Positions 56,075-61,869 of a stretch of 64,000 nt of DNA are shown here, one piece after another (position 1 is the first letter of the stretch; each line of letters begins with the position of its first letter). Made by a program: the position numbers and the translations under genes. A model generated the notes under the pieces. That model made no database searches. It was given only the letters and a program-made list of their open reading frames with translations, and was not told where the DNA came from. Source of the stretch: Bacillota bacterium. Lineage in GTDB: Bacteria; Bacillota; Bacilli; Paenibacillales; JBEGSW01. The DNA lies in the NCBI GenBank assembly GCA_041179705.1, contig JBEGSW010000056.1, forward strand, positions 1,796 through 65,795. The letters are read 5' to 3'.

Positions 56075-56614
56075 TCAAGTTACCTTTTCGGGGCCTAATT
56101 CAGATGTTAATAATTCTAAATATCTACCTGTTTCATAATAAAGCTCTTCATCTGTTAATGTTCTAACACCTGAAACCACAAAGGGTGTTTGATAGTTCAT
56201 CTTCGTCAAATTCGCCATAGCTTGGAAGGGCAATAGTAAGTCATTTATGGGATATTTATTATAACCCTCTGGTGAATAAGCATCTTTAGGTCCACCCGTT
56301 GAAACTGCGAGTATGAGTGGCTTATCTTTCAATGCATTGCCCCCATTGCCAAACGCCCATCCATGAGTCATTACCGCATCAATCCATTTCTTTAATAACG
56401 AAGGCGCACTATACCAATAAAACGGAAATTGTAGGACAATTCGATCTGCTTGTTCAAGCCAATGTTGTTCTTCAAAAATATCGATTTTTTCATCTGGATA
56501 TTTGTCGTATAAATTATACGTCTGAATATTATTATGCTTTATTGCATTAATGAAATGTCGATTTATTCTAGACTGAGATAAGTGTGGATGTGCAACAATG
56601 ACGAGCGTATTCAT
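56075..56614 (-). CDS. Flavodoxin-like NAD(P)H oxidoreductase (YwrO / KefG-like)
   Basis: LVIVAHPHLSQSRIN, RIVLQFPFYWYSAPSLLKKWID and GWAFG are collinear with remembered YwrO. Confidence 0.8.
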   Translation of the reverse strand: MNTLVIVAHPHLSQSRINRHFINAIKHNNIQTYNLYDKYPDEKIDIFEEQHWLEQADRIVLQFPFYWYSAPSLLKKWIDAVMTHGWAFGNGGNALKDKPLILAVSTGGPKDAYSPEGYNKYPINDLLLPFQAMANLTKMNYQTPFVVSGVRTLTDEELYYETGRYLELLTSELGPEKVT

Positions 56615-56666
56615 GATCAACCTCTCCATTCCTTAAATAAATATAAAGCCCAACTTAAAGAAGCTA

Positions 56667-56717
56667 TATTCATGTTAATATGCATCTCAAGTACAATAAA
56701 TGACATTAACATGAATT
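56667..56717. repeat. 12-bp perfect inverted repeat upstream of the ywrO-like gene
   Basis: ATTCATGTTAAT (56669-56680) and ATTAACATGAAT (56705-56716) are exact reverse complements separated by 24 nt. Confidence 0.7.
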
Positions 56718-56728
56718 TCATCGTATAA

Positions 56729-56777
56729 GAAAAAACGCTTGAATGAAAGAGCATCTAAACTCGTTCATTCAAGCGTT
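56729..56777 (-). terminator. Rho-independent terminator closing the cryptochrome/photolyase operon
   Basis: Minus strand: AACGCTTGAATGAA, 16-nt loop, TTCATTCAAGCGTT, then TTTTTT. Perfect 14-bp stem. Confidence 0.85.
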
Positions 56778-56792
56778 CTTATTGTTCAAAAA

Positions 56793-56870
56793 TTATTTAC
56801 CGCTTTTAGCATGAGAACCATCACATTGACCTTGCGCATTTTGAGTTTTACCACAAGCACATTGACCCAT
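56793..56870 (-). CDS. 25-aa CDGSH-like Cys/His micro-protein
   Basis: Not in the ORF track. MGQCACGKTQNAQGQCDGSHAKSGK, with GAGGGGG 8 nt upstream of the ATG at 56870. It lies 30 nt after the photolyase-family stop and 15 nt before the terminator. It contains C-x-C-G-x-T...C-D-G-S-H, close to the CDGSH 2Fe-2S signature. Confidence 0.45.
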   Translation of the reverse strand: MGQCACGKTQNAQGQCDGSHAKSGK

Positions 56871-56900
56871 TTGGAGAACCCCCTCGCTTGATAAAAATAA

Positions 56901-58424
56901 CTAACTATCTTTATTATACTGCAAGGATTGTTCCAGGGGAAGTCCTTTTATTCCATCCAGTTCAAATTCCATCTGAACAACACTCGCTTTCTTTCGGCTA
57001 CCATGTCGAGCGAGCAGTTTTTTGGAAATTGTCCGTGTCTCACTGTTTTTCTTTATCCCCCATAAAATATCCCTTGCAACACGATTTGCTTGCTCAACAT
57101 CAATGATTGGCTGAATATAAGTAGAAGGTCCATCCCATTCTGGAATGTATTTCCGTATAAATCGCTCGTCAGGGTCATGATCCTCTGCTTGTTTATAGGG
57201 ATTATAGATACGAATCGTGTTAAATCCTGTCACACCTGCTTGCATTTGGACTTGACTATAATGAATGCCTGGTTCGTAATCAATAAACAAGCGTGCTAAA
57301 TGTTCAGCCGGTTTTCGCCAATCTAAGAGTAATGTATTACAAACGAATGAAACGAGAATCGCCCGCATTCGAAAATTGACCCATCCCGTTTGATGAAGAG
57401 CTCGCATCCCTGCATCGATTAATGGAACTCCTGTTGTTCCACTCGCCCATTTTTGAAACCACTCTTCATTCCAATCAACTCTCACTTTGTCAAAAGCAGG
57501 ATTTAAAGTTCGAATAGCAATATCTGGTTGATCCTCAATTCGCTGAATGAAATGACAATGCCAATGACAACGTGATAAATAGGCCAACATTGATTTTTGC
57601 GCCCAACGTTCTACGCCATTATCGAGTACACTTTCACTTTGCTGGACGACGTATCTTAATGAAATGTTTCCCCAGGCTAAATAAGGGGACAGTCTACTAC
57701 AATTTTTTTCAGCTAGAAATGGCGATGATATACTCTTTAAATAGTCAGCGTATGTGCCTGACAAGAATTTTTTTAATTGACGATGTGCCTCGCGCTCACC
57801 ACCCTTTTGCCCTAAATTTGCATCGACCCAATCCCCATTTATGTCCAAATTAGCAAATGATTGCATCGATGTGCTTAAGCGTGTTGGAATTTTATCGCCC
57901 ATCACGAATCTTTCTGGCGGTTGAAGGACATCCGCTTCAATATATCTTCGCCAGAGGTGGTTAAATTGTTGTCTGGATCGAAGGCGACGTGTGACACCGA
58001 AATGTTGATATTCTACAAAAGATAGACCTCGCAGCCTCATCCATCGATGGACTTTCTTATCCCTTTCAAATGTCCAAGGTGTTCCATATTCTTCATGGGC
58101 AAGAAGTCGGAACGGACCATATTGTTGAAAAATACTTTCCAAAACTGGTTCCATCTCACTAACTGCATATAGAATAAATCCACCACGTTTGCGAACATCA
58201 TGTTCTAACGAACGAAGACTTTCAACAACAAATGCCAAATGTCTTTTAGACATGTCTTTCGCTTGCCAAATTGAAGGCTCCAGAATATAAATAATTAGTG
58301 TAGGACCAGTTCGCGTCGCCTCAACGATAGGGGCATGATCATAAATGCGAATGTCTCTTTTTAACCAAACGACCTGTAACAATGATTCACCCCCAGTGCT
58401 TGACGTATTCTCCTTTGGGATCAT
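56901..58424 (-). CDS. Cryptochrome/photolyase-family flavoprotein, divergent subfamily
   Basis: N-terminal VVWLKRDIRIYDHAP (photolyase alpha/beta domain). FAD-binding domain TGVPLIDAGMRALHQTGWVNFRMRAILVSF...LFIDYEPGIHYSQVQMQAG, where the canonical DGD..NNGGWQW segment is replaced. An alternative TTG start at 58382 follows GGGGGTGA. Confidence 0.8.
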   Translation of the reverse strand: MIPKENTSSTGGESLLQVVWLKRDIRIYDHAPIVEATRTGPTLIIYILEPSIWQAKDMSKRHLAFVVESLRSLEHDVRKRGGFILYAVSEMEPVLESIFQQYGPFRLLAHEEYGTPWTFERDKKVHRWMRLRGLSFVEYQHFGVTRRLRSRQQFNHLWRRYIEADVLQPPERFVMGDKIPTRLSTSMQSFANLDINGDWVDANLGQKGGEREAHRQLKKFLSGTYADYLKSISSPFLAEKNCSRLSPYLAWGNISLRYVVQQSESVLDNGVERWAQKSMLAYLSRCHWHCHFIQRIEDQPDIAIRTLNPAFDKVRVDWNEEWFQKWASGTTGVPLIDAGMRALHQTGWVNFRMRAILVSFVCNTLLLDWRKPAEHLARLFIDYEPGIHYSQVQMQAGVTGFNTIRIYNPYKQAEDHDPDERFIRKYIPEWDGPSTYIQPIIDVEQANRVARDILWGIKKNSETRTISKKLLARHGSRKKASVVQMEFELDGIKGLPLEQSLQYNKDS

Positions 58425-59709
58425 ATTGCTTCGCCTGTTTTGTTACATCAAACCATCGATCCTGCCGAGCATCGTTCCCGATTCCAGCTAAATACTGCCA
58501 ATTGCCGTAATTGCTCGCAGGATCGTAGTCAATTAGCTGTGATTCATAATATTCCGCACCCAGTAACCAATCGATTTTCCAAGTCTGTGTCAAAAAGCTC
58601 GCGGCATTTTGTCTGGCGCGATTCGTTGTAAAACCTGTCTCAATTAGTTCATGCATGGAAGCATCGACAAGTGGTGCGTTTGTTCTTCCCTCTAACCATC
58701 TATGCATCTGCTCTTCGTTCTCTTTCCAATCCTTCTTCCGCTGTTGGATGCCCTGTTGGAAAAATAATCGATCGCCATATTTGAAATGCATCAAAATAAA
58801 AAATTCACGCCAAAGCAATTCGAAAAACAACCAATACGTCGAGTCATTTCTTAACCGTTCAATTTCGTAATGTTTGATTTGTGTGTAGACTTGTCGAGGA
58901 GATAGACAACCTTGTGCCAACCATGGCGATAATCTCGAAGAATCATTTGGTCTTAGCATGCCATTCCGTGTTTCTTTATAAGTAGCAATTGCATCTGTTC
59001 CAAATAAATAGTCCTCTAATCGCGCTTGCCCAGTAGTCGAACCCCCAATAAAGTCATACGTCCTTTTCTTAGAAAGGATCGGCTTGTTGAGTTTCAACAT
59101 TTCCCAACTAGGAAATTGAACCCACTCGTCTTTTGGACAGGCATGCCATACCTCTTTTTGATTCGGGCTAAGGACTTTTGGTATTGAAAGCGATTGACAT
59201 ACAATGAATTGCTTCTCAACTTTTTGGCGGAAAGTTGTAAATAAATCAGGAATCGAATCGATTGGATTAAACCATTCAAGTTTATATAGTCCCTTTGTCC
59301 AGTAAGAGTGCCACTTCAAATCGGGGAACTTCTCTTTCGCTAGAGCAATGACTGTTTGCTCTTCAGATCCCAATTCAATCGAATAGTGAATATTTGTTGG
59401 GAACAAGCCAATTGGCATCAAAGAAGAAATTAAATTTGAGATAACATCATCAGTTGTTCCAAATCGGACAAAAAGTGGAATGTTTAATGCTGCTAATTGA
59501 TTTTCTAAATCTTTAACGCTCTCCATAATAAATTGAGCACGCGGTGCACCTGTCTTCGGAAATCCATAATGATTTGTTGTTGTGTATTGATACTTTTCAA
59601 ACACATACAATGCAACAACAGGCATACCACTTAGGCATGCCCTTGTTAACGGTTCATGATCTTCGATTCTCAAATCATTACGAAAAAGCACAATTGAGCA
59701 AGCTTTCAT
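58387..59709 (-). CDS. Cryptochrome DASH
   Basis: VLFRNDLRIEDHEPL, FPKTGAPRAQFIMESVKDLENQL, STYWLFFELLWREFF and IDYDPASNYGNWQYLAGIGNDARQDRWF are Cry-DASH hallmarks. The ATG at 59709 forms an ATGA overlap with the upstream stop. Confidence 0.85.
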   Translation of the reverse strand: MKACSIVLFRNDLRIEDHEPLTRACLSGMPVVALYVFEKYQYTTTNHYGFPKTGAPRAQFIMESVKDLENQLAALNIPLFVRFGTTDDVISNLISSLMPIGLFPTNIHYSIELGSEEQTVIALAKEKFPDLKWHSYWTKGLYKLEWFNPIDSIPDLFTTFRQKVEKQFIVCQSLSIPKVLSPNQKEVWHACPKDEWVQFPSWEMLKLNKPILSKKRTYDFIGGSTTGQARLEDYLFGTDAIATYKETRNGMLRPNDSSRLSPWLAQGCLSPRQVYTQIKHYEIERLRNDSTYWLFFELLWREFFILMHFKYGDRLFFQQGIQQRKKDWKENEEQMHRWLEGRTNAPLVDASMHELIETGFTTNRARQNAASFLTQTWKIDWLLGAEYYESQLIDYDPASNYGNWQYLAGIGNDARQDRWFDVTKQAKQYDPKGEYVKHWG

Positions 59710-59945
59710 TTGTACTTGCCCCAGAACTTTATAAGCACACGAACAAGCCATGGTAACGGCCAACCAGCTGTGTCGGCTTGCTTTGCAAATTGGATAAATG
59801 CCGTCCCTACACGACGTTGTTTTTTTATTTCTTCCTCATTTCCACGAATCGTAATCCGATATCCATCTTCCAAGCCTTCCATCTTTAGTTCAAATGGCTC
59901 CAGTTTTTCTTCAAATGTGCGTTCCACCTTAACTTCCTCTTTCAT
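59706..59945 (-). CDS. Orphan 79-aa protein, translationally coupled on both sides
   Basis: MKEEVKVERTFEEKLEPFELKMEGLEDGYRITIRGNEEEIKKQRRVGTAFIQFAKQADTAGWPLPWLVRVLIKFWGKYK. AAAGGTGGA lies 8 nt upstream. There are ATGA overlaps at 59942-59945 and 59706-59709. Confidence 0.55.
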   Translation of the reverse strand: MKEEVKVERTFEEKLEPFELKMEGLEDGYRITIRGNEEEIKKQRRVGTAFIQFAKQADTAGWPLPWLVRVLIKFWGKYK

Positions 59946-61594
59946 GATTCGTGTCCACCTTTCATCCATTTATTTAGAATCGAATTAATTCTTACATGTA
60001 AATAACCAACATAAATACTTGGGATCCACAAGACGTATTCAGTCAACTCACCTACGTATACGAAGTATGCCAAGGCCCCAAATGACACAAGTCCAAAGAC
60101 TTGTTGTTGCTTCATATATTTAATGCGATAAAGTATCTTTTCTTTTCTTAGTCTTTCCGTTTCCCTGTTGGCTTTGTTTGTGAGATACAATTGCACTTGA
60201 TTTGGAAGGTCAATCCAGGATCGGACTGATTGAATGGCAGACACTGGCATCCATCCACTCAATTTCTTTAGCCATTGTCCAATCTGATCCACCTGTATTT
60301 CATCTGTTATTTTTAGGTCTGGTAAAATCTTTTTCCCTAAATCTAAATAATCAATATCTGGATTTAAATGTGCAACAATCCCGACCAACATCCCCATTGC
60401 CCGTCCAAAAAAAGCAAATTCGGCAGGCATTTGAATGGGTTGTTGATTCACGAAATAGCGAAACTGTGCCAGCGTTGTCTGGACCATTTGTTCATTCCAA
60501 TCATCGGTGCGATGTTCCAAGAAGAAATCCAACAATTCATCAAGCGCCTGTTGTAACTGTGGAATATCAGCGCCTTCTCGTATGAAGCCCAACTCTTGAA
60601 GCGCTGTTGTCATGCCAGACTGATTGCGAATAATGATCGATTGAATGAATCGAATCATCGCATCTCTTACTTCGTTTCGAATTTGCCCAATCATGCCGAA
60701 ATCAAGAAAGACAATTGTCCCATCTGCCTGAATTTGAATATTTCCAGCATGGGGATCAGCATGAAACCGTTCGCCATTTCGGATTTGCCAGATGAAACTT
60801 CGAACGAGGCGATTAATGACGTCAGCATCATCAATCTGATTTTTTTTGCGAAAGCCATCATCTGTAATCGGAGCAGCATCGATCCACTGCATAATCAAAA
60901 CCTTATTTGTGGAGATTTCCGAGTAGTATATAGGAACTTTAATATTGAACAAAGATTCGAGCGGATGAAATGCTTTTGCATAGACCATCTCTTGCCGAAA
61001 ATCGAGTTCTTGGGTAATCGTCTTCTCAACTTCTCGATATAACCTTTTCCAATCGATCCAATTTGATGTGCGTTTGTACCAGCGTGCAAGTGTTATTACT
61101 ATCCGAATGGCTCGTAAATCTGCTCGAATTAGTTTAGGAATTGTAGGGCGTTGCACTTTGACTGCAACTTCTTGTCCATCCGCTAACTGCCCTTTGTAAA
61201 CGACCGCAATCGAAGCAGACGCAATCGCTTCAGGATGAACTTGAATCGCATCCTTAACCGCTGAACCAAGTTCCTTTCGGATGATTTGTTCTGCCTTCTT
61301 CCAAGGAATTGGTTTCGCCTGGTCTGTTAAACTTTCCAACGGTTTAGTGAAGATTTCCGGTAGAATGTCGACACGTGTGCTTAAAAATTGACCGACTTTA
61401 ATCGTCATACCTTGCAAGCGTGAAGCCATACGTTTAAATCGGATGGCTTGCGCTTCGACCAATTTCTCCCAAGCTTCTTTCTCTTGCTCATTCGTCGGAA
61501 ATCTGCGAGCGGATTGAAAATACCAAATTTCGATAAAAGCACGAATCGAATAGCTAACGATATACAGTGTTCTAATCCAAGAAATCCCCCACAT
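59942..61594 (-). CDS. ABC1/UbiB (AarF) atypical kinase-family protein with C-terminal TM segments
   Basis: KVGQFLSTRVDILPEIF, VAVKVQRP and FHADPHAGN are ABC1-family motifs. ATG at 61594 lies 17 nt after the upstream stop with AGGTGGTGA as RBS (the ORF-track start at 61705 overlaps the upstream gene). Confidence 0.85.
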   Translation of the reverse strand: MWGISWIRTLYIVSYSIRAFIEIWYFQSARRFPTNEQEKEAWEKLVEAQAIRFKRMASRLQGMTIKVGQFLSTRVDILPEIFTKPLESLTDQAKPIPWKKAEQIIRKELGSAVKDAIQVHPEAIASASIAVVYKGQLADGQEVAVKVQRPTIPKLIRADLRAIRIVITLARWYKRTSNWIDWKRLYREVEKTITQELDFRQEMVYAKAFHPLESLFNIKVPIYYSEISTNKVLIMQWIDAAPITDDGFRKKNQIDDADVINRLVRSFIWQIRNGERFHADPHAGNIQIQADGTIVFLDFGMIGQIRNEVRDAMIRFIQSIIIRNQSGMTTALQELGFIREGADIPQLQQALDELLDFFLEHRTDDWNEQMVQTTLAQFRYFVNQQPIQMPAEFAFFGRAMGMLVGIVAHLNPDIDYLDLGKKILPDLKITDEIQVDQIGQWLKKLSGWMPVSAIQSVRSWIDLPNQVQLYLTNKANRETERLRKEKILYRIKYMKQQQVFGLVSFGALAYFVYVGELTEYVLWIPSIYVGYLHVRINSILNKWMKGGHES

Positions 61595-61611
61595 TGTGGA
61601 GTTCACCACCT

Positions 61612-61869
61612 CTAATTCTTTTGAGTAGGACAACGAAATCTCGTTATTTTCGGATTGCGTGTAATCGCGTGCTTCGTTTTCCTTCCCGTCATTCGCTTTC
61701 TCCACATCTTGAACGATGAACTTTTCATCTCTTGTCGCATTACTTTAATTATTTCTCCATGTGTTAAGCCAAACTGAAGTGATATTTCATCGAATGGGGT
61801 CCTGTCTTCCCATCCCATTTGAACGATACGGTCAAGCTGTGCTTGCGATAAATGATTCCAATTTTTCAA
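61612..61869 (-). CDS. DUF2805 / TIGR03643-like small protein
   Basis: LSQAQLDRIVQMGWEDRTPFDEISLQFGLTHGEIIKVMRQEMKSSSFKMWRKRMTGRKTKH matches my memory of the WEDRTPF...WRKR family. The start is uncertain: TTG at 61869 after GGGGTGG, or the ORF-track TTG at 61899. Confidence 0.6.
   Translation of the reverse strand: MKNWNHLSQAQLDRIVQMGWEDRTPFDEISLQFGLTHGEIIKVMRQEMKSSSFKMWRKRMTGRKTKHAITRNPKITRFRCPTQKN

Follow-up and report, generated by a model that had tools for sequence, protein, structure and literature searches.

Proteins with a CDGSH iron-sulfur domain (CISD or NEET proteins; PF09360) are important for iron and redox homeostasis and play a part in human disease. An N-strand, a P-motif and a beta-sandwich are integral to all seven of their types (Lin et al., 2011; PMC3174974), and the classifications of Lin (2011; PMC3174974) and Sengupta (2018) take it for granted that a beta-sandwich scaffold accompanies every cluster loop; their collections were limited to proteins in which the full motif or the Pfam domain could be recognised. 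FMNH2 made by a flavin reductase reduces the mitoNEET cluster in vitro, and either O2 or ubiquinone can oxidise it again (PMC9490426); in Bacillus cereus a CDGSH protein rises together with iron-uptake proteins (PMC13185565). Here we analyse a 25-codon open reading frame (ORF), referred to as the micro-ORF, which lies downstream of a photolyase-family gene in a 64,000-nucleotide stretch of a Bacillota genome (GCA_041179705.1, contig JBEGSW010000056.1; the whole stretch is called the window). Judging from sequence comparisons, we lean moderately towards explaining its product as a loop-only metal microprotein, probably of the [2Fe-2S] kind, that would belong to an iron, quinone and oxidative-stress module. 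The features of the micro-ORF are the following (homologous loci are numbered with the prefix L).

56793..56870, minus strand: 25-codon micro-ORF, MGQCACGKTQNAQGQCDGSHAKSGK plus stop, with the ATG at 56870 and the TAA ending at 56793
Within the micro-ORF, minus strand: proposed ligands C4, C6, C16 and H20; signature positions T9, G14, D17, G18 and S19
56879..56885, minus strand: Shine-Dalgarno sequence GAGGGGG, 8 nt 5' of the micro-ORF ATG
56727..56780, minus strand: intrinsic terminator obtained by folding, a 14-bp perfect stem extendable to 17 bp, plus a T-run
56886..56918, minus strand: conserved upstream element TATAAT...AGTTAGTTATT, obtained by alignment and common to L001 and L005

Likeness to the CDGSH ligand loop

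By its sequence, the microprotein appears to correspond to the ligand loop of a CDGSH domain only, and it would be expected to work as such a loop does. It contains the ordered ligands of CISD proteins (C-x-C...C-x3-H) together with a C-D-G-(S/A/T)-H core (D17-G18-S19), and the degenerate pattern C-x-C-G-x8-C-D-G-S-H is matched once in the window versus 0.00 expected from 100 shuffles. A preliminary description of this DNA had pointed out the four potential ligands and the core, and both are indeed present; C4, C6, C16 and H20 are invariant in every homologue seen (an alignment of 75 members, in which the search pattern itself demanded them). It had also stated that the spacer is one residue longer than in the CDGSH signature, in agreement with the 9 residues that we count between the second and third Cys versus 8 in the signature. 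More of the signature is kept than was then recognised, since T9, which had been overlooked, occupies the (S/T) position at +5 from the first Cys. The Pro reported as missing is truly absent from the window copy, but it is found one position earlier, at +8, in L005 and in ~45% of the family members. Across the family, the likeness to CISD proteins thus includes the (S/T) at +5, an invariant C-D-G-(S/T)-H core and a Pro often placed near the third Cys.

When the window peptide is compared with the Pfam zf-CDGSH profile, residues 4-21 align to profile positions 32-48 of 48 (14.3 bits, E = 0.05). This is also the sole recurrent Pfam family among the homologues, being matched by 40 of the 75 members, with a best E of 0.0016 and none of them at threshold. 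A profile of the family searched against the PDB gave eight matches, all of them CDGSH proteins, the best being 3TBM (the type 4 RsCISD of Ralstonia) at E = 0.0015; the alignments span the ligand loop only and contain a one-residue insertion. The longer spacer is nevertheless compatible with a CDGSH fold, because three two-motif CISDs that do pass the Pfam threshold (L107, L028 and L035; 61-66 bits), resembling type 6, have the same x9 spacing in their first motif.

The differences from CISD proteins concern everything around the loop. The microprotein is equivalent to about the last third of a type 4 CISD, with only three residues before the first Cys and five after the His in the window peptide, and it has no N-strand, P motif, beta-sandwich dimerisation module or C-terminal helix. 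Because the rest of the domain is missing, it cannot be filed in the CDGSH domain family as now defined. The family to which it belongs includes free ORFs of 20-30 amino acids, tandem doublets and copies that form the tail of unrelated proteins.

The micro-ORF as a gene and the family around it

The micro-ORF is almost certainly a real translated gene. Comparison of the Bacillales copies argues for a protein-coding sequence under purifying selection, and not for an artefact of a 3' untranslated region, because the variation is biased to third positions, the ratio of nonsynonymous to synonymous differences is low and the ORF is better conserved than both flanks. Specifically, in 14 Bacillales copies with 22 alignable codons, variable sites fall at codon positions 1, 2 and 3 in the numbers 9, 7 and 21, with a mean proportion of synonymous differences (pS) of 0.79 versus 0.13 for nonsynonymous ones (pN), and the pairwise pN/pS of the window micro-ORF against each copy is 0.13-0.41. 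Window and L005 are 79% identical over the ORF, versus 52% over the 60 nt upstream and 34% downstream. T9, N11 and G14, none of them demanded by the search pattern, are invariant in the Bacillales set while their third positions are free to vary. The frame and the Cys/His positions are kept through synonymous drift, which is the behaviour that the preliminary description had proposed to look for, and its claim of a genuine coding micro-ORF is supported.

The closest loci are in line with these figures. L001 contains the nearest relative of the photolyase gene (80% identical protein), and its micro-ORF differs from that of the window by three amino acids. In L005, a Logan contig, the micro-ORF lies between a photolyase C-terminus and a Flavodoxin_2 gene, which is also the order in the window; many of its codons differ synonymously, and the terminator is unrelated. 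A GGAGG-like Shine-Dalgarno sequence is found 6-9 nt upstream in all 15 Bacillales homologous loci (read by eye), most of which also have a hairpin and T-run downstream; these terminators are non-homologous and occupy the same place. The ribosome-binding site previously reported for the window (GAGGGGG with 8-nt spacing) is present at 56885-56879, and so is the 14-bp perfect terminator, whose stem (AACGCTTGAATGAA/TTCATTCAAGCGTT) begins 15 nt past the stop and is followed by a T-run. Its fold is strong (-27.9 kcal/mol, z = -7.0), and 0 of 200 shuffles were as stable.

It could be argued that such a short ORF arose by chance within a structured 3' untranslated region or terminator. The very small size would agree with this, as would the NCBIfam search, with no relevant match for the 75 members, and the look-up of the exact peptide in a collection of 15 billion proteins, which returned nothing. 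The coding pattern just described, the better conservation of the ORF than of either flank and the persistence of the peptide across phyla at positions left free by the scan all speak against it, and an Rfam scan of the micro-ORF region gave nothing beyond sub-threshold hairpin noise. We regard this explanation as hardly credible and as effectively refuted by the comparative data. Two other candidates were considered and rejected: an attenuation leader peptide (the terminator is followed by no downstream cistron, and amino acids, not codons, are conserved) and a precursor of a ribosomally synthesised and post-translationally modified peptide (no maturase appears among the recurrent neighbours).

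Homologues were collected with a doubled-peptide query, with degenerate DNA scans and with an alignment headed by a 43-aa member. The pattern TGY NNN TGY GGN (N24) TGY GAY GGN WSN CAY was run on 185,579 species genomes and on the viral contigs of IMG/VR; the matches are not random samples, several loci come from the same clade and the neighbour counts given below are descriptive. The genome scan yielded at least 120 loci (Flavobacteriia, Paenibacillaceae, Opitutales, acI Actinobacteria and others) and the viral scan also at least 120. They define the family motif C-x-C-G-x-(T/S)-x-(N/D)-x-x-G-x-C-D-G-(S/T)-H, flanked by 3-10 N-terminal and 2-6 C-terminal residues and present in 98 of the 120 viral matches listed (L134-L253). 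Among the matches listed, most motif loci are ORFs of 20-30 amino acids, and in about two thirds of the ORFs the stop comes 2-6 residues past the His. At positions that the scan left free, the genomic matches listed carry T/S at +5 in 81 of 90 unique motifs, G at +10 in 76 of 90 and D/N at +7 in 75 of 90, and T/S at +5 also appears in 86 of the 90 unique viral motifs listed. A metagenome scan gave no matches when the pattern demanded Q3 and seven loci with a looser pattern.

A profile of the 75 members matched 2,489 protein clusters at E <= 1 in a collection of 5.8 billion proteins. Where these clusters have names, they are either 'hypothetical protein' or the automatic IMG name 'CDGSH-type Zn-finger protein', so that annotation by IMG does detect the motif once a member is long enough for gene calling; precomputed Pfam domains are almost entirely absent from these clusters. 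We found no description of loop-only CDGSH microproteins in the literature, and the motif strings of the family do not occur in the supplementary files of Lin et al. (2011). PHROGs has no family for 10 members searched, save for one match at E = 0.27, and a tblastn of two viral members against 50,697 deposited phage genomes gave nothing, these short queries having low power. The micro-ORF thus belongs to a widespread and apparently undescribed family. The preliminary description had considered a free-standing CDGSH element this short unusual, which is true of the literature and not of nature, where hundreds to thousands of such ORFs occur.

The forms of the microprotein differ between groups. 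In Flavobacteriia and other Bacteroidota it has 25-30 amino acids (M..(D)RPK-CGCGNTQ(N/D)P(N/D)G(Y/F)CDGSH-xNK), and in Paenibacillus 25 (MGKCACGNTQNxEGNCDGSHAKKDK; member MGKCACGNTQNTEGNCDGSHAKKDK), that of Brevibacillus being similar. Opitutales have tandem two-motif proteins of ~60 aa, and acI Actinobacteria a 49-aa form that reads MGAC.CG.TRDEEKNCDGTH and continues into a helix-like tail. Many abundant 49-aa acI members (P0187-P0243) have CNGTH in place of CDGTH, or C-x-C-T in place of C-x-C-G, and hence this subfamily does not strictly need the Asp, or the Gly that follows the second Cys.

Several members are fused to larger proteins. L076 and L115, from metagenome-assembled genomes of Coraliomargaritaceae, encode ribosomal protein bS16 with a long acidic Ala/Glu-rich C-terminal extension that holds one copy of the motif (CGCGNTQDPDGKCDGSH), which would be a ribosome-tethered version of the module. 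L040 (Flavobacteriales) is a Cys-rich 393-aa PSP1-domain protein, RicT/YaaT-like, that ends with the motif (CHCGKTKNPNGNCDGSH). Viral copies are found as free micro-ORFs (e.g., L140, L177, L208) and as fusions (L161, L181, L195, L250), in which the motif stands at the extreme C-terminus of XkdF-type phage serine proteases of 450-600 aa (PF14550) or, in other cases, after a WYL_2 domain or at the N-terminus of proteins of ~110 aa.

Redox neighbourhoods, Fur-type boxes and a proposed mechanism

Beyond its terminator, the window micro-ORF is followed on the same strand, after 163 nt, by a flavoprotein gene:

56075..56629, minus strand: Flavodoxin_2 / KefF-like NAD(P)H (quinone) oxidoreductase gene (PF02525, 163.6 bits)

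A Flavodoxin_2 gene is also downstream in L005, and an AzoR-like one is found 43 nt downstream in L041. Among the matches listed, YceI is located immediately upstream on the same strand in 46 of 100 analysed loci, in Flavobacteriia, where an FMN_red NADPH oxidoreductase comes immediately downstream in 12; MarR (11) or HxlR (10) regulators precede the gene in 21 loci, a nitroreductase is nearby in three Paenibacillus loci and a DCC1-like thiol oxidoreductase follows in three of seven acI loci. In the Opitutales locus L015 an ABC1/UbiB homologue is placed directly upstream of the tandem micro-ORF. The common theme of these neighbours is flavin, quinone and thiol redox chemistry together with iron status. 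YceI proteins are polyisoprenoid-binding, and in L025, L053 and L114 the motif is found N-terminal to a predicted transmembrane helix and a YceI domain in a single protein. This arrangement mirrors the gene order in which YceI precedes the micro-ORF, and suggests a link of the Rosetta-stone type.

In Paenibacillaceae the micro-ORF is monocistronic, with its own promoter, Shine-Dalgarno sequence, ORF and terminator; the promoter TTTACA-17-TATAAT (11 of 12 matches) is seen at L006, L026 and other loci. Upstream of the gene, ~100-155 nt before the ATG, 10 of 11 stand-alone copies in Paenibacillaceae carry a Fur-type box, defined as at most three mismatches to the 7-1-7 B. subtilis consensus TGATAATNATTATCA. 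The boxes often consist of two overlapping copies, L071 reading GATAATGATTATCATTATC. The rest of the analysed Bacillales loci contain no site at <= 2 mismatches and 10 at three mismatches in 104,093 positions. The genes upstream of the boxes look like those for an S-layer protein, PrsA, a major facilitator superfamily (MFS) transporter and GntR (sequences read by eye), and since they are unrelated to iron the box goes with the micro-ORF. No Fur-type box at <= 3 mismatches was found near the window ORF or in L001 and L005, so the box is a property of the Paenibacillaceae relatives and not of the window copy.

Putting these elements together, C4, C6, C16 and H20 would wrap a metal centre as they do in the CDGSH cradle. 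That the 3Cys-1His set binds a metal seems to us highly probable. The centre would most probably be a redox-active [2Fe-2S] cluster, an identity that, taken by itself, we hold tentatively and at somewhat short of an even chance. With no beta-sandwich half for dimerisation, such a cluster would have to gain its stability from a partner protein or from self-association; possible routes to its completion are suggested by the tandem forms and by the YceI fusion, which is tethered to the membrane. The peptide could then act as a one-electron shuttle, or as a carrier of clusters or of iron status, which fits the recurrent pairing with flavin/quinone reductases and YceI. In the first case, electrons would pass from the reduced flavin of neighbouring NAD(P)H-flavin reductases to quinone or O2, in parallel with the biochemistry of mitoNEET (PMC9490426); this flavin-to-quinone role is a doubtful part of the scheme. 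The Fur-type control in Paenibacillus and the rise of the B. cereus CDGSH protein suggest, on the other hand, that the peptide works when iron is limiting. The window copy would be a passenger placed last in a light/UV-repair operon that comprises ABC1 kinase, cry-DASH and photolyase genes, probably transcribed by read-through and ending at its own terminator, before the KefF-like quinone reductase gene.

A bolder version would make these 20-30-residue peptides the smallest natural iron-sulfur proteins: free-standing CDGSH cradles that hold a redox-active [2Fe-2S] cluster as a dimer or on a partner, serve as electron shuttles or cluster carriers in iron, quinone and light-driven oxidative stress, are spread over at least four bacterial phyla and aquatic phages, and have been missed as gene callers skip ORFs below 30 codons. 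We think this unlikely as a whole.

A loop-only form of wide occurrence would set the smallest natural unit of the CDGSH fold and would offer a chemically synthesisable peptide system for the chemistry of 3Cys-1His clusters. Common bacteria of water and soil, and contigs catalogued as viral, would also gain an abundant small gene, so far unannotated, in their repertoire against iron and redox stress. The Fur-type control in Paenibacillus and the pairing with YceI and flavin/quinone reductases lead to hypotheses that can be tested directly.

Several points weigh against a loop-only cluster protein working in redox or iron stress. The window peptide scores below the Pfam gathering threshold (14.3 vs 29.5 bits), it is without the N-strand, P-motif and beta-sandwich of the CISD types (PMC3174974), and it seems very short for holding a stable cluster. 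AlphaFold2, run without metal on a tandem member with a 31-sequence alignment, was uninformative (predicted local distance difference test, pLDDT, 59.8; predicted template modelling score, pTM, 0.26). Translation, metal content and function are, for all family members, predictions from sequence. With regard to the genomic context, the associations with neighbours come from non-random matches with several loci of the same clade, a strong terminator parts the window micro-ORF from the Flavodoxin_2 gene, and the YceI proteins have signal peptides while the microprotein has none, so that the two may be linked through regulation and not through contact. A Fur-type box is absent from the window copy, the Fur-type assignment leans on the B. 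subtilis consensus, and the repression predicted from it would mean synthesis in iron starvation, which is counter-intuitive for a protein that requires iron.

This last point would suit a protein with no need of iron, and zinc binding is a serious rival. The micro-ORF product would in that case bind a single metal ion as a structural knuckle (zinc or mononuclear iron) and, instead of being an Fe-S redox centre, would serve other proteins or nucleic acids as a small module for docking or regulation. A 3Cys-1His set is a classic zinc site, and the appending of the module to unrelated proteins (bS16, XkdF-type protease, WYL_2, PSP1), its basic tails and its high frequency in viral contigs, as small zinc-binding adaptors tend to show, are what would be expected of such a knuckle; the IMG name 'CDGSH-type Zn-finger protein' also agrees with it, though this is merely a historical COG name. 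A comparable protein is bL36, a small zinc-binding ribosomal protein with a 3Cys-1His set in the motif C-x2-C...C-x4-H. In size class (25-40 aa), ligand set (3Cys-1His) and basic character the family is like bL36 and other zinc-ribbon microproteins, and it has one member fused to bS16, but its motif is C-x-C...C-D-G-S-H, it has no ribosomal match in Pfam or NCBIfam and its contexts are non-ribosomal. What tells more generally against the knuckle is that conservation beyond the ligands picks out residues of the CDGSH cradle (T/S at +5, and the D-G-S stretch that separates the third Cys from the His), and that all characterised proteins with the CDGSH signature bind [2Fe-2S] (PMC3174974). Furthermore, Pfam scans at E <= 1 gave no Zn-finger, SEC-C or metallothionein family, and the redox and flavin-reductase neighbourhoods suit an electron carrier better. 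We consider zinc or mononuclear iron possible and, on balance, not likely.

A second alternative overlaps with the loop-only cluster protein that we favour and gives it another job, that of an iron-sparing or iron-status small protein, comparable to FbpA/B/C or to a NEET cluster donor, which in iron limitation would salvage or donate iron or clusters, or modulate the expression of Fe-S enzymes. FbpA, FbpB and FbpC of B. subtilis are reportedly Fur-regulated small basic proteins of the iron-sparing response; they are not known to have a Cys/His metal site. The microproteins resemble them in being very small and somewhat basic, and in the Fur-type operator of the Paenibacillaceae relatives (10 of 11 stand-alone copies, with a strong statistical contrast), which implies induction by iron starvation; the likeness is one of size, charge and regulation. 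The co-induction of the B. cereus CDGSH protein with iron-acquisition proteins (PMC13185565) is a further argument in its favour. RicT is an Fe-S protein, and one family member is fused to a PSP1/RicT-like protein. However, no Fur box was found at the window copy or at those of its close relatives, and the Flavobacterial, acI and Opitutales contexts are quinone and redox genes with MarR or HxlR and not iron uptake, which leaves this role improbable.

The photolyase operon of the window and local sequence elements

The genes that precede the micro-ORF in the window are the following.

56901..58424, minus strand: photolyase/cryptochrome-family gene of 507 aa (PF00875, PF03441), directly upstream of the micro-ORF
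58387..59763, minus strand: cry-DASH family gene (TIGR02765, 481 bits, above cutoff), same operon
59942..61705, minus strand: ABC1/UbiB-type atypical kinase gene (PF03109), first gene of the conserved block

The block of ABC1 kinase, an ORF of ~80 aa, cry-DASH and photolyase appears in the same order in L001-L004, from related uncultured Bacillales. The preliminary description placed the micro-ORF 30 nt behind the photolyase-family stop, which does end at 56901, and made it the last cistron of this operon. That is possible in the window: the gap is short, the strand is the same, the terminator is strong and a full sigma-70-type promoter, looked for upstream of the micro-ORF, was not found. However, the arrangement is specific to the lineage. 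In L002 and L003, with a photolyase 69% identical, the micro-ORF is absent and the photolyase is followed by another gene or by a terminator. No photolyase or cryptochrome lies in the ~8 kb covered at each of the 120 genomic loci listed, and a tblastn of the window photolyase, cry-DASH, ABC1 and Flavodoxin_2 proteins against the motif loci found no photolyase linkage beyond the lineage of the window.

These results bear on a further proposal of that description, that the microprotein could serve the neighbouring photolyase/cryptochrome flavoproteins as redox partner or chaperone. Its placement behind the photolyase-family stop is indeed kept in the closest relatives L001 and L005, and a separate sigma-70 promoter was not found. 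Yet the micro-ORF is absent behind orthologues in the same conserved operon, no photolyase homologue accompanies the motif at the other genomic loci listed and the gene is autonomous elsewhere. A functional tie is not supported; we take the adjacency as a local accident of this lineage, and the accessory role, already disfavoured, as very improbable. The lesson of the window is that photolyase adjacency should not be taken as function.

The photolyase ORF itself, with 507 aa, looks extended at both ends when compared with its orthologues (464-476 aa). Its C-terminus runs past the orthologue end (...EFELD/KFD-like) with ~20 extra residues toward the micro-ORF, and because of this apparent C-terminal extension the 30-nt gap is specific to the window genome. 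At its other end, the start given for the ORF lies 38 nt inside the cry-DASH gene. In the window as in L001-L004, a UbiB-type kinase is paired with photolyases.

Some short elements surround the micro-ORF. The TATAAT...AGTTAGTTATT element could possibly be a weak internal promoter or an operator remnant, and in the alignment of the window with its relatives the conserved TATAAT/TATACT is located 43 nt upstream. A 9-bp perfect inverted repeat (CATGTTAAT-N25-ATTAACATG, at 56671-56679 and 56705-56713) lies between the micro-ORF terminator and the start of the Flavodoxin_2 gene, where it may be an operator; it was not seen in L005. Just 5' of the micro-ORF, all Bacillales copies have an AGT(A/T)AGTTATT-like element (56,897-56,907 in the window, minus strand), and a related AGTAAGT element sits within the promoter spacer of Paenibacillus and Brevibacillus loci (e.g., L024, L026).

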